Below, piece after piece: positions 1 to 30,790 of a stretch of DNA of 64,000 nt. Position 1 is the stretch's first letter; each line of letters starts with the position of its first letter. A model generated the notes under the pieces. The model saw only the letters and a program-made list of their open reading frames with translations, was not told where the DNA came from and ran no database searches. The stretch comes from an uncultured Pseudomonadota bacterium (GTDB lineage: Bacteria; Oederibacteriota; Muellerivitia; Muellerivitales; Muellerivitaceae): NCBI GenBank assembly GCA_963836235.1, contig CAWIIP010000004.1:32001-96000 (forward strand), in the 5' to 3' direction. The position numbers and the translations under genes are program-made.

Positions 1-1362
1 GTTTCTTTTTCCGTTGAGAAGCAGGAGATTCCCTTCGTCGCCGGTATGGTCTTCAACGACGTTTATATCAACATCCCCCCCAGCGACCTCAAGCTCAAGG
101 CCTGCCTTCAGATCACCCATTGCGATTTGGAAAATGATCCGGAAGGGAAGTGGTGCGTGGTTTTTGGGAAATTTCTCGGCGTGTCCATTGACCTGATCAA
201 GGCGGTAAACCGCCTGAAAGACGGTTTGGTGGACCTTCGATTGGTCGAAGCGCAAAGGGAGGACTTTGACCAACTCATGGAGTTCTTCTTCGATTCAGGG
301 TTCATCTATTCGGCCAAGCGCAAGCAGCTGCAAAAGTACTCCGCCGGGGTGAAACGGACAAACCTGAAACTACTCCAATCCGACGGCGCCATCATCAAAA
401 AGGTCATCTTTAAGGATCATCGCGAGATCAAGGGGCATATCTCCGCGCTGAAATTCTTCGACCGAGCCTGGCTGGTCCAACATATGACGACGCACAATAC
501 CCCCGGTACCGCAATCGCGCGCGCCATCCTCAATTCCATCTCAAATTTTTTCCAGGATCCCGCCGCCAACCGGAAGGTCGGCACTAATTTCGTAACCTGT
601 TACTACCAGCCTGGCAATCTCTATCCGGAGATGGTTTTCGGGGAGACCCAAAGGATGGTCGCAAACCCGGACATTTGTGGCACCACTGACCTTGATTTTT
701 GTGTTTCAGCCGCGGCGGAGCCCGGACCAAAGGCCGGGAGGGAAAAATCTAAGATCAAATGTCATGAGGCCCAAGCGGAGGACCTAGCGCGCCTGGAATG
801 CCTGTTGGTAACTCAGGGGCATTTCTTTCCCATCCGCATTGAGGGACTAACCGCAGAGGGAATGACGAAACTCGAGTTGTCAGTGGAATATGAAAAAATC
901 GGCCTTTACCGCCGCCGCCGCATTTTCGTCGCTAAAGATTCGGATGGGGAGGCCGTCTACGCGATTTGTAACTATTCTTCACCGGGATGCAACTTGTCGG
1001 AACTGACAAACTCCTTCCGCTTTTATTATTCCGGTACCGGGTCGCTGCCGACCTTGGAGGCGGCCAACGCTCTCAGCCGGCATGTGTTGTCTACTTATCA
1101 GGCCACCGAGATGAACGCCCCAGCACTGCTTTTGGGTGCCAATCAGCCGATACCGGACAAGTTCAAAAAGATCCGCAAATATCGCTATTGGTACTTTGAC
1201 GCAGCCTATTGTGACCTCTTTAAGAGAGTGTCTGAGTTTAATCTCTCCAACGCGAAGGAAATTCTAAAGAAACTCAAGTCGGGAGGCTCCGAGAACGCCG
1301 AATCTGGAAAAATAAACCGTGAGAAAACAGACCAAAAGGGTATGAAATATGAGTCTGTCTAG
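1..1362 (+). CDS. 5'-truncated protein: probable PilZ-like domain followed by a GNAT/acyltransferase-like region
   Basis: Frame is open from base 1 (VSFSVEKQEIPFVAGMVF...). The N-terminal part resembles the end of a PilZ barrel. FFDSGFIY...GHISA...WLVQH resembles PilZ-GNAT fusions recalled from delta-proteobacteria/myxobacteria. Overlaps the next gene by 14 bp. Confidence 0.5.
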   Translation, partial: VSFSVEKQEIPFVAGMVFNDVYINIPPSDLKLKACLQITHCDLENDPEGKWCVVFGKFLGVSIDLIKAVNRLKDGLVDLRLVEAQREDFDQLMEFFFDSGFIYSAKRKQLQKYSAGVKRTNLKLLQSDGAIIKKVIFKDHREIKGHISALKFFDRAWLVQHMTTHNTPGTAIARAILNSISNFFQDPAANRKVGTNFVTCYYQPGNLYPEMVFGETQRMVANPDICGTTDLDFCVSAAAEPGPKAGREKSKIKCHEAQAEDLARLECLLVTQGHFFPIRIEGLTAEGMTKLELSVEYEKIGLYRRRRIFVAKDSDGEAVYAICNYSSPGCNLSELTNSFRFYYSGTGSLPTLEAANALSRHVLSTYQATEMNAPALLLGANQPIPDKFKKIRKYRYWYFDAAYCDLFKRVSEFNLSNAKEILKKLKSGGSENAESGKINREKTDQKGMKYESV

Positions 1363-3499
1363 CGGCAAACCCCTTTACTCGGACAAGTTCTATAACGTCA
1401 AGATCATGAGGATTTATGTCGCCTACCTGAAAGAAAAGTGCCTTTGGCCCAATGAGAAGATCGAACATCTATTCGATCTTTGCCACTGCGACATCACTTT
1501 CCTGGATTCGGAAGACAACTGGTTCGACCAGGACTTGGCGGACCGTTTTATCGAAAAGGTTCAGAAGATGACGGGGGATGACCAAATCGCCTATAAGGTG
1601 GGCAGTTATGGCTTCTCCGCCTATGCCCGGGGTATCTCGGGAAGGTTGATGCAGGGTTTCGTCACTCCCCAGATTGTCTTCCAAAATATCGGCAAGAATT
1701 CTATGGCCTATAGCCGGGGTGCGGTTCTCAATCCGGTGAGGGTGTCCTCCAACGACGCCGTTTTAAGGTGCACCCCGGTAGAGGGATGCGACGAAAAGCC
1801 CTATCAATGCTTAAATCGCAAGGGAATGTTGGAGTCGGTACCACTTTTTTTCGGGTGCAAAGAATCACGGATCGTGGAAAACAAATGCATTCACTGGGGG
1901 GACAAATATTGCGAATACTTGATCGAGTGGAAGAACATGACCCTTTTCCCCAGTTCCGCAATCACCGCGGGGATTGGAGGTTCCAGCCTTGTGGCGGCCT
2001 ATATGGCCACCCACAGCTCCCTTTTTTCGCTGGCCTTTGGGGCTGGTATGGGGCTACTCACCGATTTCTGGCTTCTTAGCCGCACCACAAGGGTTCTCAG
2101 GGAGTTGATCGTGGAGAAAGACAACGCGCTTCAGGAGTCGTTGCGCATTTTCAACCGGCGTTACGAAGAGAGCGCGCTGAAACAGAACCTCTTCTTCAGT
2201 GCCTTCCAATCCCTCTCGGTGGAAGAACTCTGCCTTAAAACAGCGACCATTGCCAAAGATATGATGAAATTCGATCGGGTACTGATCATGCTCAGTGATA
2301 AGGAACGCAACGTACTCAAGACCACCGCAGCTGTCGGTTTTGAGGGAAATCTGAAGGAGATTGTGGAGATGGCGGAATTCAATATCGACCCCACTAACAC
2401 CACGGGTTTTTTCATTAATGTTTACAATACTCGGAAACCGCTTTTCCTTAGGGATATCACCCATAAGATGAGCAAGTTAAGTTCTCGAAGCCAGCAGCTG
2501 CTGAAATTGATGGGGACGAAAGCTTTTATCGTCGTTCCAATTGTTACCTCCGACAAAACAGTCGGTGTCATGGCCGTAGAGAACCTTGACGAATCCCGTC
2601 CCCTAATCAACGACGATATGGATATCCTCCTGGAAATCGCAAATTTGATGGGGCTTATCATTCCGAATGTGAAAAATTTTATTGCCATCAAAAAATCAGA
2701 GAAACTGGCCAAGTCTCTGGAGGAGCAGGAACGGCAACTCCGCCAGATTTTTCAGAAATTTATACCGGGCGAGGCGGTTTCGCGCCTTCAGCACTACGGA
2801 AGTGAATTCCTCACCGTCCAAAAGAGGATGGTGGATGTCATGTTCGTGGATATTGTGGGTTTCACCAGCTTCAGTGAAACAATCCCCCCGGAGGAAGTGG
2901 CCGATATCCTCAATATTTATATCGATGAGGTTCAGGAAACAGTTGATCTTTATGGGGGTAGGATCAACAAGATTATTGGCGATGGATTGCTCATCTACTT
3001 TGAAGAAGTAGGACCCAATTCGATTCGCGCTGGATACGCCATTCTGCAAGCCTGCGTCGCCATTAACCAACGTTTGACGATGAAAGGGTATCCTTCAATC
3101 TCTATTGGAGTCGGAGCGCACCGGGGCATTTGCAGCATCGGCTATATCGGAACGAAAGAAAGGCTGGACTACACTCTCATCGGCGACACGGTCAACGTCG
3201 CCTCGCGTATTGAGGGATATACTCGCAAGACCGGACCGTGCACCTTTTGTTTTTCCTCAACTTTGATCGACGCGGCGAAGGAATTTGACTACGTTTCCAA
3301 GGGGAAAGTACCATTAAAGGGTCGGGAAGAATCCATTGAGGTGCTTCAACTTCTGAAACCGTTGCGGAAAAAGAAAGTAGGCCCGATCGGGCCTACTTTA
3401 AAACAAGCCGCGAAGAATGGGTCCAAATTGAAGTCCACCGAAAAAGTTAGTCCGGATTTTCAAGAGCTCAAGTCTCCGGTGGTTGGACGCTTCAACTAA
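1349..3499 (+). CDS. Membrane sensor class III adenylate/guanylate cyclase (H-NOX/V4R-like N-terminal domain, 2 TM, GAF, cyclase)
   Basis: V4R-type Cys pattern (CLNRKG...CIHWGDKYCEY), hydrophobic hairpin, GAF (FIVVPIV...VGVMAVEN), cyclase motifs FVDIVGFT, KIIGDG, GDTVNVASR. Confidence 0.85.
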   Translation: MSLSSGKPLYSDKFYNVKIMRIYVAYLKEKCLWPNEKIEHLFDLCHCDITFLDSEDNWFDQDLADRFIEKVQKMTGDDQIAYKVGSYGFSAYARGISGRLMQGFVTPQIVFQNIGKNSMAYSRGAVLNPVRVSSNDAVLRCTPVEGCDEKPYQCLNRKGMLESVPLFFGCKESRIVENKCIHWGDKYCEYLIEWKNMTLFPSSAITAGIGGSSLVAAYMATHSSLFSLAFGAGMGLLTDFWLLSRTTRVLRELIVEKDNALQESLRIFNRRYEESALKQNLFFSAFQSLSVEELCLKTATIAKDMMKFDRVLIMLSDKERNVLKTTAAVGFEGNLKEIVEMAEFNIDPTNTTGFFINVYNTRKPLFLRDITHKMSKLSSRSQQLLKLMGTKAFIVVPIVTSDKTVGVMAVENLDESRPLINDDMDILLEIANLMGLIIPNVKNFIAIKKSEKLAKSLEEQERQLRQIFQKFIPGEAVSRLQHYGSEFLTVQKRMVDVMFVDIVGFTSFSETIPPEEVADILNIYIDEVQETVDLYGGRINKIIGDGLLIYFEEVGPNSIRAGYAILQACVAINQRLTMKGYPSISIGVGAHRGICSIGYIGTKERLDYTLIGDTVNVASRIEGYTRKTGPCTFCFSSTLIDAAKEFDYVSKGKVPLKGREESIEVLQLLKPLRKKKVGPIGPTLKQAAKNGSKLKSTEKVSPDFQELKSPVVGRFN

Positions 3500-3621
3500 G
3501 GTGAGTTCTTTACCCTTAATATGAAAAAAGAACTAAGGACTTTGTTTTCAAATTAAAGGCCGGTAGATTTTCAAAACCCTTCCGAAAAGGAAGAATTCCA
3601 AGGGAACAGCTAGGAAGGGCT

Positions 3622-4767
3622 TTACTTAACAGGTTGTTTTTTGGAAAAAATACCGGCAATAATTTCAGCGAAACGGCTGGGCACTTCCAGCTTACGTGGC
3701 TCGTCACCGATGATGGGCTTGTCGAACAAAGCATATACCTGATTAATTCCTACGTCCTTAAACCAGGCGAGGCCCGGGTCCATCGCGCCGACGATCGCAA
3801 TGCAGGGTATTCCCATCCTTTTCGCCATCTGGGCGACAGCTACAGGCGCTTTTCCCTCACGGCTGGAGTTGTCCAAGAGACCCTCGCCGGTGATCACCAG
3901 ATCGCAGCCCTTCATTTGGTCTTCCAGTTTTAGAGTTTGGGCCACAAAGTCAAAACCACTTTCCAACTTGGCGCCCAAGGCCAGGAGGGCCATACCCATC
4001 CCGCCAGCGGCTCCTGAACCTTTTTCATTTTTCAGAAGCATTCCCGAAGTCTTTGAAAGTACTCCCTCAAATTGATAAAGACCTTTTTCCAACTCCTCGA
4101 TAGCGTCGGGGGTCGCCCCCTTCTGAGGGCCGAAGAACCGAGCGGCTCCATGATCCCCCAAGACGGGAACATTGACATCGACCAAGCCAATGATATCGAT
4201 TCCCTTGAGGGCGAGTTGGATGGGTTCCAAGTCAATAGATTGAATCAAGGACAGATGTTTGCCGGAAAGGCCTCTGGGAGGCAAGGTGCCTTTGGCCTTG
4301 AAGGTTGCGCCTAAGGCCTGAAGAAAGCCGAGGCCGCCGTCAATGGTGGCACTTCCGCCGAGGGAAATTTTTAAATGGAGCACTCCATGTTTTTTGACCG
4401 CTTCTAAAACAAGTTCTCCCGCGCCATAAGTAGTCGTTTCAAGGGGATTGCGTTCTTCCGGCGCCAGGCGAAAAAGGCCTGAAGCTTGGGCCATTTCGAT
4501 AATGCCCGTGTCTTTTTGGGGTAGTTGGGCGATCCCATATTGGGCTTGTTTTGGACGCATCAGGGGATCATTCACAGTGGTAGTGAGGGTTTTTCCCTTG
4601 AGGAGATAAATAATGGAAGTTAATGTGCCCTCTCCTCCATCGGCCACGGGGCAGAGACGAATCTGGGCGTCGGGAAGGTTTTTTTGGATTTGGTTTCTCA
4701 GAATTTCGGAGACTTCCTGGGCTGTCGAGACTCCCTTGAATTTATCGGGGGCAATTAGGATTTTCAT
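3622..4767 (-). CDS. glxK: Glycerate kinase
   Basis: KILIAPDKFKG, PVADGGEGT, GGSATIDGG, GAAGGMG, VITGEG motifs. Confidence 0.93.
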   Translation of the reverse strand: MKILIAPDKFKGVSTAQEVSEILRNQIQKNLPDAQIRLCPVADGGEGTLTSIIYLLKGKTLTTTVNDPLMRPKQAQYGIAQLPQKDTGIIEMAQASGLFRLAPEERNPLETTTYGAGELVLEAVKKHGVLHLKISLGGSATIDGGLGFLQALGATFKAKGTLPPRGLSGKHLSLIQSIDLEPIQLALKGIDIIGLVDVNVPVLGDHGAARFFGPQKGATPDAIEELEKGLYQFEGVLSKTSGMLLKNEKGSGAAGGMGMALLALGAKLESGFDFVAQTLKLEDQMKGCDLVITGEGLLDNSSREGKAPVAVAQMAKRMGIPCIAIVGAMDPGLAWFKDVGINQVYALFDKPIIGDEPRKLEVPSRFAEIIAGIFSKKQPVK

Positions 4768-22186: not shown

Positions 22187-24835
22187 ATGAAAAAACATCC
22201 AAGATCATTTGAATTTTACCGGCTCTTTTCTGTCATTTTTTTAGTTGGCGGATTTGTGGTCGTAATTTTTGATCCGAACCTTCTCGCCGGTATTTTTCAT
22301 CGGGCCGCTGCCCTGAAATCGACTCGACAAGATTCTTCCGGGGAAATGAAATTTAAAAGATCCTACGGCCAACTCCCATTGATCTTCGAACCCAACGAAG
22401 GCCAAACCGATCCCCGGGTGAGCTATTTCTGCCGGGGCGCGGGATACAGCCTATTCTTGACCCCGAAAGAAGCGGTGCTCACCTTAAGACAACCCGAACC
22501 ACCATCCCGCCATCCGGGCCGCGAGAAGGGCCAGGCCTTGCCTCTCGAACCGTCCCGGGTCCGGGAGAGGGTGTTGCGCATCAAGTTAAAAGAGGCCCAA
22601 TCGCCTTCCTCGGTGGAGGGGATGGATAAATTGGAAGGTACCAGCAATTATTTCATCGGCAAGGACCCCCGAAAATGGCGCACAGGGATCCCCCAATTCG
22701 CCAGGGTGAAATTAAAGGATGTTTATCCCGGCATCGACATCGTTTATTACGGCAACGGGGGAAAATTGGAGTATGACTTCGTGGTAAAACCGGGGGCCGA
22801 TCCGAGGTCGATCCAGATGGCTTTTGAGGGCACCCAAGGGATGAAGTTGGTCGATGGCGATTGGGTTTTGAAAGCGGGGAAAGACCAACTGGTTTTTAAA
22901 GCGCCCGTGATCTATCAGCCGCAAGGGGGCTCGCGCAGAAGGGTGGAGGGACGGTATGTGCGGATGGGGCCTCATCAGCTGGGTTTCCAGGTGGATGGCT
23001 ATGACCCGACGCGAACGCTTGTCATCGATCCCGTATTAGATTATTCGACCTATTTGAGCGGGAGCGCCTCGAACCAGAGCTTCGGGATCGCGGTGAACTC
23101 CAGCGGAAATGCTTATGTGATCGGACAGGTTACTTCCATTACTTTCCCAACGACGGCAGGGGCCTTCCAGACCGCCCCCCCTGGCGGTACCTCGGACGCT
23201 TTTGTCTCGGAGCTGAACGCCGCCGGGACGGGGTTGGTCTATTCGACCTATTTGGGCGGGACGGGGATAGAGGGCGCCATGAAGATTGCGGTGGACGCCG
23301 CGGGAAATGCCTATGTGGTGGGAGTCACCAGTTCCACCGATTTTCCCATCACGCCCGGAGCCTTCCAAACGGCCTCCACGGGGGTTACCTATAACATTTA
23401 TTTGACCAAATTGAATCCCGCCGGGACCGCCCTCGTTTATTCCACGTACTTTGGCGGGAATGCCGACACGCAATGCGACGCCCTCGCAGTCGACAACACC
23501 GGGCAGGCTTATATCGGCGGCTTTTCCAGCGCCACCAATTTACCCACAACGGCCGGCGCCTATCAAAGCACGATGAAGGGAAGTACCAACGCCTATGTGG
23601 CAAAGTTCAACGCCCTCGGGACGGCTTTGGTGTACATGACTTATCTGGGAGGGACCAATTATGACGGTCTTTCTGGGATCGCGTTGGACCCTTCGGGGGA
23701 CGCTTATCTCTGCGGCGGGACCCGCTCCGTCGATTTCCCCACGACCGCCGGAGTTTTTAAATCGGCTTATGGCGGGGGAATCAATGATGGCTTTGTGGCC
23801 AAGTTGAATCCCACTGGTACTGCCTTGTTGTACTCTACTTACCTGGGTGGAAGCGGGAACGACAGCATCTCCGGTATCAAAATAGATTCTTCGGGAGACG
23901 CCTATATTGCCGGCGGCACCACTTCCGTGAATTTCCCCACCACCGCGGGCGCTTATCAAGGCGCGTTGGCGGGAAATACCAACGTCTTCATCACTGAATT
24001 AAACCCAACAGCCACTTCATTGATTTACTCCACCCTCCTGGGAGGCAGTAATAATGATGCGGCCTATGGAATGGATATGGATTCCTCCTATAGGGTCTAC
24101 GTGACGGGGCAGATCAATTCGGTGAATTTTCCAACCACCGCGGGGGCGTTCCAAACGGTTTTTGGGGGTTTCGACGATTCCTTTATCAGTGTCATGAACC
24201 CGACCGGCACGGCCTTGGTCTATTCCAGTTACCTCGGAGGGAGCAGTGAGGACGTGGGCTATGGCATTGCCTTGGACCCGGCCGGGAACGCTTATCTGGC
24301 AGGCTATACCTGGTCGACCGACTTTCCCACGACGGCGGGCGCTTACCAACCGGTGTACGGCGGCGGAAGTTCCAACGCCTTTGCCGCTAAATTCGACGTG
24401 ACGACCTTTAGCATCCCCGCCATCACCGCAACCCCGACCTCCACTCCGACGAGTAGTCCAACTTCAACGCCCACACCCTTGGTTACCAGCACGCCCACTT
24501 CCACACCGACCTTTACGCCGACCGCCCTGATGACCAACACGCTCACACCCGGTTCAACTTCAGGCTGTGTGATCCATGTTTGGCCCAATCCTTATAGCTT
24601 GAAATACGCCCATGACCATGCCTTGAAGTTCAGCTGCCTGCCCGCGAACGCCGAGGTTTATATCTATACGGTATCGGGCGAGTTGGTGGCCCAGTTCGGC
24701 CCCTCCGGCGACCCCACCGAATGGAAAGATGGGAAAAATCTCAATGGGGCCAGTGTTTCCTCCGGCATTTATTATTACGCTATTCAGAATGGCCAAACCC
24801 TCTTGCAACGGGGTAAGTTTTTGATCACACCTTAA
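22187..24835 (+). CDS. Secreted SBBP beta-propeller repeat protein (paralogue) with Thr/Pro linker and C-terminal sorting-like domain
   Basis: FEPNEGQTD, repeated YSTYLGG, WPNP...IYTVSGELV...SGIYYY. Confidence 0.88.
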   Translation: MKKHPRSFEFYRLFSVIFLVGGFVVVIFDPNLLAGIFHRAAALKSTRQDSSGEMKFKRSYGQLPLIFEPNEGQTDPRVSYFCRGAGYSLFLTPKEAVLTLRQPEPPSRHPGREKGQALPLEPSRVRERVLRIKLKEAQSPSSVEGMDKLEGTSNYFIGKDPRKWRTGIPQFARVKLKDVYPGIDIVYYGNGGKLEYDFVVKPGADPRSIQMAFEGTQGMKLVDGDWVLKAGKDQLVFKAPVIYQPQGGSRRRVEGRYVRMGPHQLGFQVDGYDPTRTLVIDPVLDYSTYLSGSASNQSFGIAVNSSGNAYVIGQVTSITFPTTAGAFQTAPPGGTSDAFVSELNAAGTGLVYSTYLGGTGIEGAMKIAVDAAGNAYVVGVTSSTDFPITPGAFQTASTGVTYNIYLTKLNPAGTALVYSTYFGGNADTQCDALAVDNTGQAYIGGFSSATNLPTTAGAYQSTMKGSTNAYVAKFNALGTALVYMTYLGGTNYDGLSGIALDPSGDAYLCGGTRSVDFPTTAGVFKSAYGGGINDGFVAKLNPTGTALLYSTYLGGSGNDSISGIKIDSSGDAYIAGGTTSVNFPTTAGAYQGALAGNTNVFITELNPTATSLIYSTLLGGSNNDAAYGMDMDSSYRVYVTGQINSVNFPTTAGAFQTVFGGFDDSFISVMNPTGTALVYSSYLGGSSEDVGYGIALDPAGNAYLAGYTWSTDFPTTAGAYQPVYGGGSSNAFAAKFDVTTFSIPAITATPTSTPTSSPTSTPTPLVTSTPTSTPTFTPTALMTNTLTPGSTSGCVIHVWPNPYSLKYAHDHALKFSCLPANAEVYIYTVSGELVAQFGPSGDPTEWKDGKNLNGASVSSGIYYYAIQNGQTLLQRGKFLITP

Positions 24836-24838
24836 CGT

Positions 24839-24870
24839 GTTGTCCACGACGGGGACCCGTCGTGGACAAG
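24839..24870. repeat. 32-bp palindromic site P1
   Basis: GTTGTCCACGAC-GGGGACCC-GTCGTGGACAAG; starts 3 bp after the SBBP stop codon. Confidence 0.9.
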
Positions 24871-24884
24871 GATAATAGGGACAC

Positions 24885-24913
24885 TTGACGTATAACGCTC
24901 TCCGTTATACCCT
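24885..24913 (+). promoter_or_regulatory. higBA sigma70 promoter with overlapping operator palindrome; probably leaderless
   Basis: TTGACG-17bp-TACCCT, 6 bp before the ATG; inverted repeat GTATAACG-N5-CGTTATAC at 24890-24910. Confidence 0.7.
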
Positions 24914-24919
24914 TAAAGA

Positions 24920-25201
24920 ATGATCCGAAGCTTTAAGGGTAAAGAAACCGAGCTTATCTTCAACCGGACTTTTTCCCATCGGCTGCCCCACGACATTCAA
25001 ACGGTGGCCTTTCGGAAACTCCGAATGATAAGCCGGGCGGTATCCTTAAACGATTTGAGGGTTCCCCCAGCAAACCATTTGGAAGCCCTGCACGGGAACC
25101 GTAAGGGCCAACACAGCATTCGGATTAATAATCAATGGCGTGTTTGTTTTGAATGGCGCGCGGGGGACGCACATAACGTTGAGATCGTGGATTACCACTA
25201 G
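24920..25201 (+). CDS. higB: HigB-family (RelE-like) toxin
   Basis: MIRSF...DLRVPPANHLEALHGNRKGQHSIRINNQWRVCFEW...VEIVDYH. Confidence 0.94.
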   Translation: MIRSFKGKETELIFNRTFSHRLPHDIQTVAFRKLRMISRAVSLNDLRVPPANHLEALHGNRKGQHSIRINNQWRVCFEWRAGDAHNVEIVDYH

Positions 25202-25209
25202 GAGGAAAA

Positions 25210-25512
25210 ATGAAGACAGCTAAAATTCCGCCGCTACATCCAGGCGAAGTTCTTCAAGAGGAGTTTTTAGCTCCCATGAAGATCAGCCAAAATAAGCTGG
25301 GTCAGGACCTGGGGGTCCCTCCCCGCCGCATCAATGAAATCATCCAGGGGAAAAGGGGCATCACAGCCGATACCGCCTTGCGCTTGGCCAGGTATTTCAA
25401 CATGTCCCCCCAATTTTGGCTTGGCTTGCAAATGGATTTTGAGTTGGACCAGGAAGCAGACCATCTTGCATCCCGCCTCAAAAAGGAAGTCCACGTCTAC
25501 CAGGCTGTTTAA
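25210..25512 (+). CDS. higA: HigA-family HTH antitoxin
   Basis: HPGEVLQEEFL, RINEIIQGKRGITADTALRLARYF, FWLGLQ. Confidence 0.94.
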   Translation: MKTAKIPPLHPGEVLQEEFLAPMKISQNKLGQDLGVPPRRINEIIQGKRGITADTALRLARYFNMSPQFWLGLQMDFELDQEADHLASRLKKEVHVYQAV

Positions 25513-25526
25513 GATCGGTTCCATGG

Positions 25527-25558
25527 GTTGTCCACGACGGGGACCCATCGTGGACAGG
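25527..25558. repeat. 32-bp palindromic site P2
   Basis: GTTGTCCACGAC-GGGGACCC-ATCGTGGACAGG. Confidence 0.9.
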
Positions 25559-25608
25559 TAAAAGGGGTATAATCCAATCTTCGTTACGCTTCTATAATTG
25601 AGGCAAGT

Positions 25609-26742
25609 ATGAATCGACTTTTCCTTATCGCGGTAATCCTCTTGATCGGCCTGTTCCCCCTGGCTTGCCAGAAGACCTATACGTTAGGCCCTCTGAGCGT
25701 TCCAACTCCCGCTCCACCTCCCACCAAAACCTTTACCGCCACAGGTTCGCCTACCCCCACCTGTAGCGGGAAAATCGTTTCGACCTTGGCGGGGTCCGGG
25801 TTGGTTGGAGCCGTCAACGCCACTGGTACAGCCGCGTCGTTCAATTTCCCTACGGGGGCCGCCGTGGATTCTTCCGGGAATGTTTATGTGGCGGATACTT
25901 ACAACAACCTGATACGGGAAATCACGTCAGGTGGGGTAGTAACGACCTTGGCCGGGTCCGGGGCGATTGGAGCCGTCAACGCCACCGGGACCGCCGCGTC
26001 CTTTCATACTCCCTACGCCCTGGCGGTGGATTCTTCGGGCAATGTTTATGTCGCGGATACCATTAACAACCTGATCCGGATGATAACCCCCGGTGGGGTG
26101 GTGACCACCTTGGCCGGAGGCGGGCCTTGTTGCGCGGTAAACGCAACGGGAACCGCCGCTTCGTTCAACGGACCTTGGGGAATAGCCGTCGATGCTTCCG
26201 GAAACGTTTATGTGGCGGATCAAACCAACGACCTCATCCGGAAAATTACCCCGGGCGGCGTCGTGACGACCCTGGCGGGATCGGGTGCCTGGGGGGCCAC
26301 CAACGGAACCGGAACCGCCGCGTCTTTTTATAATCCCGTTGGACTCGCGGTCGATTCTTCGGGGAATGTTTATGTCGCGGATTCTTACAACGACATGATC
26401 CGGAAAATCACTCCGGGAGGCGTGGTGACGACCCTGGCGGGGTCCGGGTCAGCCGGCTCGGCCGACGGAATCGGGACCGCGGCGTCTTTCAATATGCCCC
26501 TTGGGGTCGCGGTGGATTCCTCCGGAAATGTTTACGTGACGGACGCGTGGAACAACCTGATCCGTGAAATTACCCCAGGGGGCGTGGTGACGACCCTGTT
26601 GGGAAAAGTGGGGGTCGCGGGTTCAACCAACGGAAATTGCTACCAGGCCCTTTTCAACCAGCCTGATGGAATCGCGGTGGATTCCTCCGGGAAAATCTAC
26701 ATCGCGGACCAGGACAACAACCTGATCCGGGAAATCCAATAA
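25609..26742 (+). CDS. NHL-repeat beta-propeller lipoprotein
   Basis: Lipobox PLAC; six AVDSSGNVYVAD..NNLIR.IT repeats. Confidence 0.9.
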   Translation: MNRLFLIAVILLIGLFPLACQKTYTLGPLSVPTPAPPPTKTFTATGSPTPTCSGKIVSTLAGSGLVGAVNATGTAASFNFPTGAAVDSSGNVYVADTYNNLIREITSGGVVTTLAGSGAIGAVNATGTAASFHTPYALAVDSSGNVYVADTINNLIRMITPGGVVTTLAGGGPCCAVNATGTAASFNGPWGIAVDASGNVYVADQTNDLIRKITPGGVVTTLAGSGAWGATNGTGTAASFYNPVGLAVDSSGNVYVADSYNDMIRKITPGGVVTTLAGSGSAGSADGIGTAASFNMPLGVAVDSSGNVYVTDAWNNLIREITPGGVVTTLLGKVGVAGSTNGNCYQALFNQPDGIAVDSSGKIYIADQDNNLIREIQ

Positions 26743-26771
26743 ATTCCAATTCGCCCTTTTGATATAAAAAA

Positions 26772-26803
26772 TCTGTCCACTACGGGGACCCGTCGTGGAC
26801 AAC
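26772..26803. repeat. 32-bp palindromic site P3
   Basis: TCTGTCCACTAC-GGGGACCC-GTCGTGGACAAC. Confidence 0.9.
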
Positions 26804-26812
26804 AAAGAATTG

Positions 26813-26849
26813 CCTGCACATGCCTGTCGCAAAAAGGATAGTGTGCAAC
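26813..26849. repeat. 37-bp direct repeat R1
   Basis: CCTGCACATGCCTGTCGCAAAAAGGATAGTGTGCAAC; identical copies at 27821 and 28778. Confidence 0.97.
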
Positions 26850-26850
26850 C

Positions 26851-27120
26851 GATGCTCTTTTTGATGCTTCGGCACCTTTTGTGAGTGAAGTAGGTAGTGA
26901 TTTGGCCGTTGGCGCATTGGAAGCAGGGGGAGCAGCATTGGCCTCAGTTTCGGGGCCTTTGGCTCCGCTGGTGGAAGAGGGAACACAAGCGCTTGCACCC
27001 CTTGCCTATGTTGCCGGTTCGACCGCGGCATCGGCAGGTTGGAAATATATTCAACAACAAGCCGCTCCCGTAATAAACAATGCGATAAGCACCATTAGTG
27101 GGTGGTTTTCAGGACCGTGA
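26851..27120 (+). pseudogene. 3' gene fragment with an Ala/Gly-rich hydrophobic C-terminus, cut by R1
   Basis: Frame is open from inside R1 (DALFDASAPFVSEVG...GWFSGP*); no convincing RBS/start. Confidence 0.6.
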
Positions 27121-27147
27121 TTTTTCTTTTTCAATTTTAAAGATTAA

Positions 27148-27633
27148 GTGAAGTGGTTTGAAATGAAAAACACAAAAGTTTATGGATCTAAATTCACTGT
27201 TTTGCTCATGGGACTTTTTTTAGGGATGAGCCTTTTTGTTCTTGTGAAGAAATTGGGGGAACCAGATGCCGAAATCACGAAACCAATCTTAATAGTTGTC
27301 TTTGGTCTGTTTTTATTTTTGGTGGCTTTTAATCGAGCATTAACCCCTCGATGGACCTATGACGAGAGTGGAGTCACGATGAAAAACTCATTTAAGCCAA
27401 AAGATGAAAATTTTTGGCCTTGGAGTGAAGTTGTTGGCATTTATAGACGCGCTTATTGGTCGTGGAATTACTACATCGATTTTAAACGCGGGGGTGTCAT
27501 GGTTAGTTTTCTCTGGACTAGCAATCATTTAAGGATTTTAGTGGATGCGGTACATTTTGCACAAAAAAATAACCCAAATGTGGAAATTACACCTTCTGTT
27601 TTGGGAAAAGTTAAAAAATATTTTAACCGATAG
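27148..27633 (+). CDS. AT-rich 2-TM membrane protein with a soluble C-terminal domain (immunity-like)
   Basis: Two hydrophobic helices, then a WTYDESGV...WPWSEV pattern; start GTG 27148 or ATG 27163. Confidence 0.7.
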   Translation: MKWFEMKNTKVYGSKFTVLLMGLFLGMSLFVLVKKLGEPDAEITKPILIVVFGLFLFLVAFNRALTPRWTYDESGVTMKNSFKPKDENFWPWSEVVGIYRRAYWSWNYYIDFKRGGVMVSFLWTSNHLRILVDAVHFAQKNNPNVEITPSVLGKVKKYFNR

Positions 27634-27689
27634 ATATTTTTGAAAAGTAACTTTTGGGCAACAGTTAGTAGATTGAAAGGCGTTTGTTA

Positions 27690-27820
27690 ATGAATGGCGA
27701 AGTTTTTAAAAATTTAAAAAGTGCCAAGAGATTATGGGGCTTATTGCTGTTTCTCACTTTGGGAAACAGCTCAATATCTTTCGCCCAGACAGCCACGCCT
27801 ACCCCCATGCCCACGCCGAC
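27690..27820 (+). pseudogene. 5' gene fragment (signal peptide plus TPTP linker) cut by R2
   Basis: GAAAGG RBS; MNGEVFKNLKSAKRLWGLLLFLTLGNSSISFAQTATPTPMPTP runs into R2 and stops at 27860. Confidence 0.65.
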
Positions 27821-27857
27821 CCTGCACATGCCTGTCGCAAAAAGGATAGTGTGCAAC
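27821..27857. repeat. 37-bp direct repeat R2
   Basis: Identical to R1. Confidence 0.97.
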
Positions 27858-27864
27858 TAACTAA

Positions 27865-28635
27865 TCACTTTTCCGAAGATTTTAATTCATTCAATATTTC
27901 TTTTGATTTCTTTTCCAACTCTTGTCGATTCCCCCTAAGACTCAAGTTCGTTTTATGATATTGTTCAACAGTTTGCTTATATGAAATTCTCAATTTTAAT
28001 CTCTTCTCACGGTTCAAAAAATATTGATCGGCGGTACTTTTCGAACCAAACGTTTTAATTTTGCGATCTTTATACTCTCCATATATTTTGGAGCCCGTTA
28101 TTTTTTTGAATATTTGATCCGTTAATTCGTTTGCGTTTTTCAGACCACCTTTATGCCAAGTCAATTTAGAATAAGTCCCATTAATCATCGCCTCTTCCCT
28201 AATCCATTGACAAAGATCATCAGTTTTACCATCGCCCAATTCGTTTCCTAATTGATCCGCTTTTTCAATTCCCTCTTTTTGTTTTGACTTCACATTCATT
28301 TGATCTATCGGCATACTTTCGGGATTATTGTGTGCACCCATCGAAGTTAGATCGTTGGATAAATCTTTAAGTTTTTTAATTAAAGCCATTTGATCATCAG
28401 TTAAGTTCAACGATGACACCGATATTAAATCTTCATCCACTTTTGGTAAAAAACCGGATGCACTCCAAATCTTTATTGCTCGAATTTTTTCGGCAGACAC
28501 TGGCAAAACCTCAGAAGTAATGGCGGGTGTTTGAGCAATAACCCATCTAATAGGCGCAGCCCAAAGAACCAATATTTCAAAAGCAAAAATCATTTTCCGC
28601 CATTTTTGAAATTTCATCCCTGTTTTGAAATCCAT
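27865..28635 (-). CDS. AT-rich exported helical hypothetical protein
   Basis: 256-aa ORF, signal-like N-terminus (..VIAQT), GGGGGA RBS; stop lies 7 bp from R2. Confidence 0.75.
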   Translation of the reverse strand: MDFKTGMKFQKWRKMIFAFEILVLWAAPIRWVIAQTPAITSEVLPVSAEKIRAIKIWSASGFLPKVDEDLISVSSLNLTDDQMALIKKLKDLSNDLTSMGAHNNPESMPIDQMNVKSKQKEGIEKADQLGNELGDGKTDDLCQWIREEAMINGTYSKLTWHKGGLKNANELTDQIFKKITGSKIYGEYKDRKIKTFGSKSTADQYFLNREKRLKLRISYKQTVEQYHKTNLSLRGNRQELEKKSKEILNELKSSEK

Positions 28636-28652
28636 TACATCCCCCTGATGTG

Positions 28653-28677
28653 GTTTGCCCTAAGCGTTGTCGAAGGG
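28653..28677. repeat. Single REP-like element
   Basis: GTTTGCCCTAAGCGTTGTCGAAGGG resembles the widespread CCCTGAGCTTGTCGAAGGG-type intergenic repeat; only one copy seen here. Confidence 0.35.
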
Positions 28678-28777
28678 TTGGTGTTGTTTAAACGAAGGTG
28701 AGCGAGGTAAAAGCGAAAACTTTTTCAGTTGGACTATATCAAAACGATAAATATTTACTATGTTTAAAGGTAAATGG

Positions 28778-28814
28778 CCTGCACATGCCTGTCGCAAAAA
28801 GGATAGTGTGCAAC
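28778..28814. repeat. 37-bp direct repeat R3
   Basis: Identical to R1 and R2. Confidence 0.97.
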
Positions 28815-28952
28815 GGTTCAAGCTCTTATTCAAAATAATGATGGGAATGGGCGAAAGTGGGGTTTCGGGCCTATTTTAGAAGCCTGAAGAAATCATTTAA
28901 AAGAAAAGCAGTTATGCCATTTTTTGGAAATAAAAGATAATGGCAATATGTA

Positions 28953-28984
28953 GTTGTCCATAGTGGGGACCCTGATTGGACAAC
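28953..28984. repeat. 32-bp palindromic site P4 (degenerate)
   Basis: GTTGTCCATAGT-GGGGACCC-TGATTGGACAAC; outer 8-bp arms and 8-bp core are retained. Confidence 0.85.
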
Positions 28985-29018
28985 CCAATCCCTTCAACCC
29001 GCTATTTGAGGATGTGAG

Positions 29019-29366
29019 TTAAAATGGCACCAGCACAAATCTCCCATAGGCAACGAATAGGACCAGGAGAGCGGGCACCAAAGCCCAGAGAAAGCCCTGA
29101 AACTTGACGCCGGTCAACGCGGAAACTGATACCGTTTCGACGGCTACGCAGACTGCCACGATGGGGGTTAGGATGGGCAGTATCCCGATTGCTCCAGGCA
29201 AAACCAGGCCTAAGGCGAACAGGGCCTGGAGCACACCCAGAGCCATCCAGGCGGGCTTTGGCAGAATTTTCAACCAGACCCCCGGGACTTTAAATACCAT
29301 CCAGCTCCCGCCCATCAAATAGTACAAGCACAGCAAAATTTGAAGCACCCATAGCAGAATGTTCAT
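29019..29366 (-). CDS. DoxX-like 4-TM membrane protein
   Basis: MNILLWVLQILL...GLVLP...FVAYGRF pattern; GAGGAG RBS. Confidence 0.8.
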   Translation of the reverse strand: MNILLWVLQILLCLYYLMGGSWMVFKVPGVWLKILPKPAWMALGVLQALFALGLVLPGAIGILPILTPIVAVCVAVETVSVSALTGVKFQGFLWALVPALLVLFVAYGRFVLVPF

Positions 29367-29490
29367 CCTAGTCTCCTCGAATTCGCCGGCGCGCGGCCAG
29401 CTTATTTTAAAACGCTGTCATCGCCTAAGGTACAAAGGGGCCCGACCTTTTTTCCACCTCCGTGTCGTAACGGAGAGGACGGGCGAATTA

Positions 29491-29517
29491 TGTCACACCC
29501 TTCCCCCTTGATTCGTC
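29491..29517 (+). promoter_or_regulatory. ECF41-type promoter driving the sigma gene
   Basis: TGTCACA-N16-CGTC. Confidence 0.8.
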
Positions 29518-29525
29518 ATTATCAT

Positions 29526-29552
29526 GACGGATAAGAATAGGAAAATGTGACA
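29526..29552 (-). promoter_or_regulatory. ECF41-type promoter driving the DoxX-like gene
   Basis: Minus-strand TGTCACA-N16-CGTC (plus strand GACG-N16-TGTGACA). Confidence 0.8.
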
Positions 29553-29569
29553 AGGGAAAGGGGCACAAA

Positions 29570-30463
29570 ATGGCTGAAAGCGATCGGCTGGCTGACCGGT
29601 TCCAGGAGAACCGCTCCCATTTACGGACCTTGGCCTACCGGATTCTGGGCTCCAATGGGGAAGCCGATGACGCGGTCCAAGAGGCCTGGCTCCGCCTGAC
29701 GCGCTCGGACGTTCAAGCGATCGAAAACCTGGGTGGGTGGCTTACGACCGTGACGGCCCGGGTTTGCCTGGATATGTTGAGATCGCGCAAAACCCGGAAA
29801 GAAGAATCCATCCAAGAGAATATTTTGGAAATGCCGGAAAACCCCAGCGCTCCCAATCCGGCGGATGAGGCCCTGCTGGCCGACTCCGTGGGTTCGGCCC
29901 TCTTGATCATCCTTCGCAGCCTGACGCCCGCCGAGCGGGTCGCCTTTGTTCTGCACGACATGTTTGACCTGCCTTTCGATGAAATCGCTCCGATCGTGGG
30001 CCGGTCTGAACCGGCGGTGAGGCAGCTCGCCAGCCGCGCCCGCCGCAGGGTCCGGGGAGGCGGGGAAAGCCGGGAGGACGAGGGAAAAAAACGGGAGATC
30101 GTCTCGGCCTTCCTGGCCGCCTCCCGGGAGGGACATTTCGACGCCCTGCTTCAATTACTCGACCCTGAAGTCCTGTTGGACGCGGATGACACCGCCGTCA
30201 AAATCACCACGGCCAACAAAGACAAGGGCGCGCCGCCTTTCCAAAGCCGCATGCGAGGCATGCGAAAGGTCGCCGAAACCTTCAAGGGCCGGGCTGTGGC
30301 CGCCCAACTGGCCCTTATCGACGGCTCGGTGGGAACCACCTGGATCGGCGGCGGAAAACCCAGGGTAGCTTTCCTGTTCGCGATCGAGAAGGGGAAGATC
30401 CGGGAAATCAACGTGGTCATGGACCCCGAGGATTTGGGCAAAATGAAAATCGAGCTTCTGTAA
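29570..30463 (+). CDS. ECF sigma factor with C-terminal SnoaL-like extension (ECF41/SigJ-like)
   Basis: AYRILGS..EADDAVQEAWLR, ERVAFVLHDMF, RQLASRARRRVR, AFLAASR.G.FDALL.LLDP. Confidence 0.9.
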   Translation: MAESDRLADRFQENRSHLRTLAYRILGSNGEADDAVQEAWLRLTRSDVQAIENLGGWLTTVTARVCLDMLRSRKTRKEESIQENILEMPENPSAPNPADEALLADSVGSALLIILRSLTPAERVAFVLHDMFDLPFDEIAPIVGRSEPAVRQLASRARRRVRGGGESREDEGKKREIVSAFLAASREGHFDALLQLLDPEVLLDADDTAVKITTANKDKGAPPFQSRMRGMRKVAETFKGRAVAAQLALIDGSVGTTWIGGGKPRVAFLFAIEKGKIREINVVMDPEDLGKMKIELL

Positions 30464-30790
30464 AATCAAAAAAGATCAGAATTTAAAGTGAAGACTTGAC
30501 GAATAGGGGTTAGGTATAAGTTGTGAAATAGGGATTCTGAAATTTTTCCACGAGATTCTTTACCTCTTCTTTACCCGTTTCGGGAACCTTTTTTTAAAAA
30601 AAAAGGTAATCTTAAAAGACTTGGAGAAATTAATTTTAAAAAAAGATATTGCCGGGAATTTATTTTTTAATATTCCGGCGGGCCGGTGAGTTTATTTTAA
30701 ACACACCTTTCTTGCCCGTTGGTTTCCTTCGCGGGGGCGGATAAATTCCACCGGTCTTTTTTTCGATAATCAAAATTTAATGAGGAACGC

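Follow-up and report, generated by a model that had tools for sequence, protein, structure and literature searches.

Co-oriented 28-bp palindromic sites delimit mobile gene cassettes in a family of uncultured bacteria, with a short serine recombinase as the candidate enzyme

The stretch of DNA analyzed here (64,000 nt; the window) comes from an uncultured bacterium of the family Muellerivitaceae, whose genome is 3.97 Mb in size and comprises five contigs. Genomes, their contigs and fetched loci are labeled G, C and L, respectively, so that the window corresponds to G000:C4:32001-96000. It contains four short palindromic sites, P1-P4, which bracket three units of DNA. On balance, these are probably site-specific recombination sites of 28 bp that are found throughout the family and cut its accessory DNA into mobile cassettes, and the most likely enzyme is SR277, a truncated large serine recombinase of roughly 277 aa. 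As the initial annotation of this DNA had anticipated, no recombinase serving the sites is encoded at the window locus itself.

A search of the window for GTTGTCCA-N16-TGGACAAC with up to three mismatches returns exactly four matches, at 24839, 25527, 26772 and 28953, all on the forward strand, whereas shuffled versions of the window contain 0.26 matches on average and none of 100 shuffles reaches four. The four co-oriented palindromes of the initial annotation are thus borne out, as are its unit intervals of 656, 1213 and 2149 bp, and a whole-genome profile search finds no site in the window beyond P1-P4, in agreement with the earlier statement that further copies are missing from it. The contents assigned to the three units, namely a higBA pair, an NHL lipoprotein gene and a module of R repeats, are confirmed by domain matches and by the repeat count; HigB matches PF05015 (E 1.1e-19) and HigA matches TIGR02607 (104 bits, cut-off 47.7). 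By contrast, the promoter that had been attributed to higBA could not be recovered, since a consensus scan reports no promoter-like site between P1 and higB. The core GGGGACCC is present in the identical sense in all four sites. In P4, four inner positions are indeed unpaired, as previously described (TAGT opposite TGAT); its right arm is of a recurrent type, “class 2” (N-N-A-T-TGGACA), and its left inner arm is unusual.

The conserved site is a 28-bp sequence, TGTCCACGAC-GGGGACCC-GTCGTGGACA, in which two 13-bp arms, perfect inverted repeats of each other, flank a central GA. Because the arms otherwise constitute a perfect inverted repeat, the direction of the site is given by the central dinucleotide only; the core that the initial annotation called asymmetric is invariant in P1-P4, but its asymmetry is confined to these two nucleotides. 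Among 326 full sites, 23 of the 28 positions are conserved at 91-99% and the central GA at 96-97%, position 10 is conserved at 79%, and the right inner arm (positions 19-22) at only 59-75%, compared with 79-96% for its pairing partners. Judged from this sequence, 13-bp arms around a non-palindromic GA fit the serine class of recombinases at least as well as the tyrosine class, and the site is compatible with cleavage at the central dinucleotide.

In G000, 44 copies of the site are identified by the strict pattern and about 76 by profile search, of which 68 are located in 13 arrays (2-13 sites each) and eight are singletons. Orientation is uniform in all 13 arrays, as it is in 156 of the 177 multi-site loci of other assemblies, and the motif is therefore clustered and co-oriented rather than scattered at random, the pattern that the initial annotation had associated with ordinary gene-end repeats. 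Sixty-eight of the 76 sites are located 3′ of an open reading frame (ORF) of the same sense, at a median distance of 25 nt from the stop codon, and their polarity follows that of the replichores, which is strongly marked in both gene strand and GC skew. The 55 inter-site units of G000 have a median length of 828 bp (range 234-4747). Their genes are diverse: 64 array ORFs match 78 Pfam families, no family occurring in more than three ORFs, and the products include HigBA, BrnT with an RHH partner (BrnTA), GNAT, HAD hydrolases, LOG, an OMP beta-barrel, SUKH immunity proteins and a beta-lactamase-fold protein. Eighteen of 24 other family genomes, representing more than 12 genera, carry the motif, and none of 16 genomes from other families of the phylum does. 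The motif also occurs on more than 120 metagenome contigs, and the named contigs among the matches listed are almost all titled candidate division FCPU426. Searches of the IMG/VR viral contigs gave no match to the motif, and searches of the PLSDB plasmids gave none to P1.

Units between sites recur as entities in different arrays and different genera, with identity that extends from site to site, which bears out the claim of the initial annotation that the sites delimit gene cassettes. The NHL cassette of the window is duplicated at G000:C2:1195352-1196624 (reverse strand), where identity is 100% over 1276 nt and the DNA outside the sites is unrelated. Similarly, a 1020-bp cassette of the array at C4:854-860k (L004:6663-7682) is 100% identical to G047:C15:1026-2045, in a genome (G047, apparently the same as G045) that belongs to a different genus of the family and whose core genes are 70-73% identical to those flanking the array; the match ends precisely at position 18 of the downstream site. 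In G047, the counterparts of the cassettes of the largest array are spread over different contigs, and the neighboring core block stays syntenic. The cassette common to the two genera (G000:C4:856690-857664, L004:6690-7664) has no ORF of 70 codons or more in the ORF call, and may be devoid of ORFs or encode a small peptide.

The mapping of breakpoints drew on 663 sites in G000 and the fetched loci, with intron-flanked sites left out of the set of pairs that share only the right flank. In 24 pairs sharing only the left flank, positions 1-15 mismatch in 0-12% of cases and positions 19-22 in 46-54%, which is about the random level; linkage to the left flank thus covers positions 1-15 but not positions 19-28. 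In 24 pairs sharing only the right flank, a single mismatch is found over positions 11-18, six at position 19 and at most one at each of positions 20-28, so that positions 16-28 are linked to that flank. Among rare variants, position 11 goes with the left flank and positions 16-18 with the right flank. The exchange point is therefore located between positions 11 and 16 of the site. Empty and occupied alleles were compared as well: an ungapped search found no such pair, and a BLAST-based repeat found two independent cases, both with both junctions at sites. In one of them, L160 reads A-site-B and L251 reads A-site-1741 bp-site-B, with flanks that are 90.7% and 71.3% identical; in the other, a single site in L193 corresponds to a 2612-bp insert in G000 (C2:1476543-1479155). 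The downstream ends of arrays are half sites, in which the left arm and core are followed by unrelated DNA. Accordingly, the prediction of the initial annotation that content between sites would vary among genomes, with junctions at the core, is upheld by the breakpoint pairs and the empty and occupied alleles. The loci of G047 that are orthologous to the window array and to the array at C4:854-860k contain no sites, and the resident genes downstream of the window array have counterparts in G047/G045 (71% and 77% identical) that are not accompanied by a site; at these loci the insertion points cannot be placed because genomes that are 70-77% identical are too diverged.

The enzyme most closely tied to the sites is SR277. 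In G000 it is a protein of 278 aa (C2:163827-164663) with a Resolvase domain (PF00239, 79.3 bits) and a Recombinase domain (PF07508, 52.7 bits); it lacks a zinc ribbon (no match to PF13408) and a coiled coil, and stops where the zinc ribbon of a 515-aa paralog starts. The SR277 clade is tight, with 19 clusters of 275-283 aa that share 74-100% identity and an invariant YVRVSS motif, while the next relatives, which include full-length large serine recombinases, are at most 61% identical and those in PLSDB at most 31%. A structural model (pLDDT 72.6) yields Foldseek matches to the Bxb1, phiC31 and LI integrases with E values down to 5e-13. The gene is located at an array end, convergent with the array, in eight loci of seven genomes. 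Five full-length genes were found in the family (G000, G001, G022, G042 and G045), all of them convergent to the array, together with three degraded copies (in G018, a second in G042, and G046/L049/L236) that are approximately 40-50 nt from their site. At four of the full-length loci, 8-34 nt separate the end of the gene from the terminal site (34 nt in G000, where this is the last site of the array); in G001, the gene and the site are separated by a group II intron. The adjacent site is a hybrid in seven of the eight loci, with a gene-proximal arm that is the element's own (TGTTCCTTTT, TGTTCACTTT and others) and a canonical core and distal arm; next to the degraded copy of G046/L049/L236, the site is canonical throughout. 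Five of the SR277 loci also have a small conserved palindrome ahead of the site.

These features are those of a large serine recombinase in that the catalytic and recombinase domains and a gene-adjacent att site with hybrid junctions are present, and differ in that the zinc ribbon and coiled coil are absent. From what is known of large-serine-recombinase structures, a protein that has retained the inner DNA-binding domain alone would require a short site, approximately 28 bp in length. In G045:C17, a block consisting of SR277, ArdC, a toxin/antitoxin, RadC and an insertion sequence (IS) lies between two sites, like a 7-kb cassette, and in G042 genes for ArdC and a TraG/VirB4-like ATPase are found beside SR277, which suggests a conjugative vehicle. 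In G000, no far junction of the SR277 element occurs within 65 kb. Across 225 loci, no further family of recombinases is found repeatedly near sites; a 229-aa resolvase that stands next to a site in L159 was set aside as a coincidence, because its two homologs in G018 have no site nearby. The initial annotation had proposed a tyrosine recombinase, a view that is not supported, as only the serine recombinase touches the sites repeatedly, and SR277 is the best candidate for the enzyme of the P sites.

A bolder model, which we put forward tentatively, is that the system represents a serine-recombinase counterpart of the integron, in which a minimal derivative comprised of a catalytic and a recombinase domain, carried on a transmissible element, would insert, excise and shuffle hundreds of single-gene cassettes via the 28-bp site, among at least 12 chromosomal arrays per genome and between genera of an uncultured phylum. 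In the explanation that is favored overall, each cassette is built of its own right arm, followed by one or two genes and by a left arm with the core, and the mechanism proposed is the following. A recombinase dimer would bind both arms of a site, two sites would synapse, and SR277 would catalyze strand exchange inside the core, with cleavage at the central GA. If exchange takes place in the core, then a circular cassette bearing one site could insert at any resident site and two direct sites could release the DNA between them; cassettes would pass through circles. In this way arrays may grow at many places in the chromosome and cassettes may pass between genomes. SR277 itself is carried on a cassette-like integrative element, equipped in some genomes with conjugation-related genes, and would serve in trans the cassettes that have no recombinase of their own, among them those of the window.

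Several observations weigh against assigning the sites to a cassette system run by SR277. No PF00239 gene is found in G023, G021, G010, G005, G002 and G016, which contain 9-27 strict sites each and are 89-99% complete; in G018, with 55 sites, the SR277 gene is only a fragment; and in G000 it touches one of the 13 arrays. The enzyme is possibly supplied transiently by a transmissible element, or SR277 may be a mere integrase of an element that homes to the sites, as group II introns and IS110 elements do. The resolution of the breakpoints is limited because positions 11-18 are nearly invariant. The genomes nearest to that of the window are about 70-80% identical. Among sequencing runs, only five shallow contig sets cover parts of the window (share at most 0.22), with pieces of 150-600 nt at a depth of about three over 23500-30500, and these show neither a circular junction nor an excision product, nor any informative joint across the P sites; a single joint that “skips 670” has one side of 20 nt, inside a repeat.

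On these grounds, a different enzyme has to be considered, although we regard it as unlikely: the sites would be true cassette sites served by an unrecognized or unbinned recombinase, for example a tyrosine recombinase acting on 10-bp arms and an 8-bp overlap, and the SR277 element would be one more parasite of the sites. The six site-rich genomes devoid of PF00239 are in line with this idea, as is the fact that other mobile elements also target the sites. One site consensus is kept over more than 12 genera, which asks for a widely present factor; the 10-8-10 reading is the geometry of the lineage's own dif-like site; and a breakpoint within positions 11-16 is as compatible with an 8-bp overlap as with a central dinucleotide. 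Against it stand the exact cassette architecture of the SR277 unit, the lack of any further recombinase family recurring near the sites, and the tyrosine recombinases themselves, since all eight PF00589 genes of G000 are otherwise accounted for. Six are paralogous integrases (57-70% identical, 366-386 aa) with no P motif nearby; four of these lie immediately next to a tRNA gene, and the other two are each followed by a tRNA 3′ fragment. Because a tRNA gene or 3′ fragment follows all six, they look like integrases of tRNA-targeting islands and were rejected as the P-site enzyme. Five of the six are preceded by an ORF of 84-91 aa, one of which matches an excisionase family in an NCBIfam scan; the integrase at C4:195984 has none immediately upstream. 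The remaining two genes are an integrase overlapping tRNA-Gln and a single Xer-like gene (353 aa). As every family genome searched has one Xer-like gene, and the P sites are 28 bp long and flank modules with toxin-antitoxin genes, host Xer might be thought to move them as it does the plasmid dif modules of Acinetobacter. This is very improbable, however, because xer has a site of its own: directly upstream of it, near the inferred terminus, is a dif-like 28-bp palindrome, GTTCGGTATA-TCTGTAAT-TATACCGAAC (G000:C1:329898-329925; L007:2399-2426), and the dif-like site of the lineage, TTCGGTATAA-CTGTAA-TTATACCGAA, has a sequence unrelated to that of the P site, is unique in G000 and stands beside xer in at least nine family genomes, an arrangement like that of XerS/difSL-type systems. 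Moreover, P sites are co-oriented and do not alternate. Least probable of all is an integron array, of the kind known as CALIN, with unusually short attC sites. The arrays of co-oriented, mostly single-gene and promoterless-looking cassettes with unrelated genes, rich in toxin-antitoxin pairs, are an integron-like trait, and attC sites are targets of group II introns and IS110-family elements, which has a parallel at the P sites. Nevertheless, the integron integrase IntI (NCBIfam TIGR02249) is found in none of 31 family genomes (best score 84.5 bits, and 40.9 bits in G000, against a cut-off of 265), and the P site is short, conserved in sequence and nearly perfectly palindromic, with breakpoints in its center and not at one end. 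The earlier statement that the sites are neither attC nor dif therefore holds.

A further explanation, which we consider improbable and less so than the two just discussed, dispenses with a dedicated recombinase: the sites would be REP-like or structural hairpins at gene 3′ ends, acting in RNA stability, in termination or as a protein-binding mark, and the mosaics would arise by homologous recombination or gene conversion between 28-mers. The sites do follow stop codons in sense orientation, along the polarity of gene strands and replication, the folding energy of consensus copies is -15.8 kcal/mol (z -5.7), and the sites are insertion targets of hairpin-seeking group II introns and IS110 elements. 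Linkage of the right arm to the right flank would also result if crossovers took place only within the longest identical tract (positions 1-18). A selected hairpin was nonetheless rejected: compensatory pairs in the 326 sites (1, 2, 3 and 13) are at chance level, the right inner arm is poorly conserved, and approximately one quarter of the sites have lost the inner stem. An intrinsic terminator, that is, a GC-rich hairpin followed by a T run, was likewise rejected, as a terminator scan reports none of P1-P4, which lack a T tail and have A-rich flanks; Rfam contains no family matching window positions 24000-30000 at E ≤ 1. The Y1 transposase (RAYT) PF01797, as a possible partner of REP elements, has no match in four site-bearing genomes (G018, 55 sites; G001, 29; G023, 26; G020, 5) and occurs in G017 and G024, both of which are devoid of sites; Y1 genes stand beside the R repeat instead, and the REP/RAYT assignment was thus discarded. 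The strong clustering of the sites, single cassettes that are 100% identical between genera with only 28-bp anchors, and a recombinase gene that carries a hybrid site also argue against a purely structural element. Recombination at the P sites with SR277 as the most likely enzyme is hence the explanation that we favor.

Compared with known systems, the P-site arrays work like an integron in their architecture, yet they do not belong to that class. As in integrons and CALINs, cassettes are co-oriented, mostly single-gene and of unrelated function, rich in toxin-antitoxin pairs and each closed by a palindromic site, and many arrays have no adjacent recombinase. However, attC sites are imperfect palindromes of about 55-140 bp that are conserved in structure rather than sequence and are crossed over at one end. 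The crossover of the P site is central, and therefore, unlike in the integron, each cassette carries a half site at each end. In addition, there are at least 13 arrays per genome here against one platform in the integron, and the candidate enzyme is a serine recombinase, encoded in convergent orientation at the downstream end. At the level of the enzyme, the closest relatives are the composite islands of SCC and the ssrA islands of Dehalococcoides. SCC and SCCmec islands stack cassettes by means of a serine recombinase, with attB in the conserved gene rlmH. Common to these, to the P-site arrays and to the ssrA genomic islands (PMC3146451) are an integrase of the large-serine-recombinase family beside att, tandem accretion, and recombinase-less units flanked by the same repeat and presumably mobilized in trans. 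The island systems have one chromosomal attB in a conserved gene (rlmH or ssrA), units of approximately 10-60 kb and full-length integrases, of about 540 aa in Dehalococcoides (PMC3146451). By contrast, the units described here measure approximately 0.2-4.7 kb, the site is a free-standing palindrome at many loci, and the enzyme has neither zinc ribbon nor coiled coil. In site size, the closest known system is that of the pdif modules of Acinetobacter, in which 28-bp sites flank small modules that shuffle between replicons, often contain toxin-antitoxin genes and are targeted by dedicated IS elements; pdif sites resemble the host dif and are served by XerC/XerD, whereas P sites are unrelated to the dif-like site of their lineage. 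Neighboring pdif sites alternate in orientation, whereas P sites are co-oriented. Finally, REP elements are likewise short extragenic palindromes after genes and are targets of the IS110 family, but P sites are clustered and polar and define exchangeable units, and they occur in four genomes that are devoid of Y1 genes. The titles and abstracts listed on non-integron tyrosine-recombinase/attC and serine-recombinase cassette systems contain no description of such a system, and among the matches listed for FCPU426 there is none on genome repeats.

Other elements are also found at the sites (Table 1). In other assemblies, two kinds of group II intron home to the P sites. Those of one kind, with a reverse transcriptase and maturase ORF, begin right after site position 28, their 5′ signature occurring at 20 of the 663 sites; those of a second kind are inserted within the site after about position 11-12. 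Neither 5′ signature is found in G000. IS110-family (DEDD) transposase genes stand beside P sites in six loci, including L068:5803-6879 and L121:4578-5684. A conserved stretch, aaaATGGATAATGgtggcc, begins approximately 5-12 nt after some sites (G000:C1:432892, C1:381444 and C4:855064; L025, L087, L107 and L074); it travels with the right arm variant TTCGTGAACA and opens only ORFs of 10-35 codons in G000.

The R repeat of the third window unit is a second repeat family, 37 bp long (CCTGCACATGCCTGTCGCAAAAAGGATAGTGTGCAAC), represented in G000 by nine identical copies and a tenth with two differing positions, all with the polarity of the P sites. It is distributed across the family, with occurrences in G045 (25 copies), G012 (11), G042 (6), G043 (5) and G023 (2), forming co-oriented arrays with a spacing of 0.6-4 kb. 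Because several copies in G012, G042 and G045 are approximately 0.1-1.5 kb from Y1 transposase genes, R may be the lineage's REP/RAYT-type element. In one sequencing run, the depth of the R 37-mer is 62 against about 5 for its flanks. Window positions 26893-27780 (888 bp between the first two R copies, with ORFs of 79 and 161 aa) are 100% identical to G047:C3:399835-400722, which lies directly between two R copies and is inverted relative to them; this piece has the appearance of a small mobile unit of its own, associated with R.

Table 1. Sites, cassettes and neighboring genes of the window array (window coordinates), and loci of associated elements
Feature	Position	Strand	Description
Resident upstream gene	22187..24835	+	882-aa SBBP propeller protein, T9SS sorting tail; P1 at its 3′ end
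P1	24841..24868	+	First array site; full consensus TGTCCACGACGGGGACCCGTCGTGGACA; 5 nt 3′ of the stop of the resident 882-aa gene
Cassette 1	24869..25528	+	higB 24920-25201 and higA 25210-25512; toxin-antitoxin pair
P2	25529..25556	+	Right inner arm ATCG, variant that travels with the NHL cassette
Cassette 2	25557..26773	+	Single NHL/SBBP beta-propeller lipoprotein gene, 25609-26742
P3	26774..26801	+	Left inner arm CTAC, variant common to the C2 copy of the NHL cassette
Unit 3 (2.15 kb)	26802..28954	.	Three identical 37-bp R repeats; 161-aa ORF 27148-27633 (+); 256-aa ORF 27865-28635 (-)
P4	28955..28982	+	Last array site; TGTCCATAGT-GGGGACCC-TGATTGGACA
Resident downstream genes	29019..30463	.	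115-aa ORF 29019-29366 (-); ECF-type sigma factor 29570-30463 (+)
R copies in the window	26813-26849, 27821-27857, 28778-28814		
R copies elsewhere in G000	C1:380527, 405292, 431426; C2:189969, 917797, 917902, 919266		
Six paralogous integrases	G000:C2:508543, C2:1185612, C2:1373842, C5:272301, C4:195984, C4:244739		
Group II intron loci	L068:2591, L068:7691, L072:5925, L124:7444; L284:5155 and L152 (G047:C3)		

Integrons are the textbook case of the banking and reshuffling of single genes, and rely on one family of tyrosine recombinases and on folded attC sites. In an uncultured lineage of soil and peat, the same genome architecture is found with an unrelated and much simpler site and probably with a different class of enzyme. 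If SR277 is that enzyme, then cassette banking would have evolved more than once, and a natural large-serine-recombinase core would work without the control module formed by the zinc ribbon and coiled coil; such a compact recombinase with a 28-bp site would be worth testing as a tool. The 28-mer itself provides a concrete handle with which the accessory gene pool of the phylum can be recovered from metagenomes.

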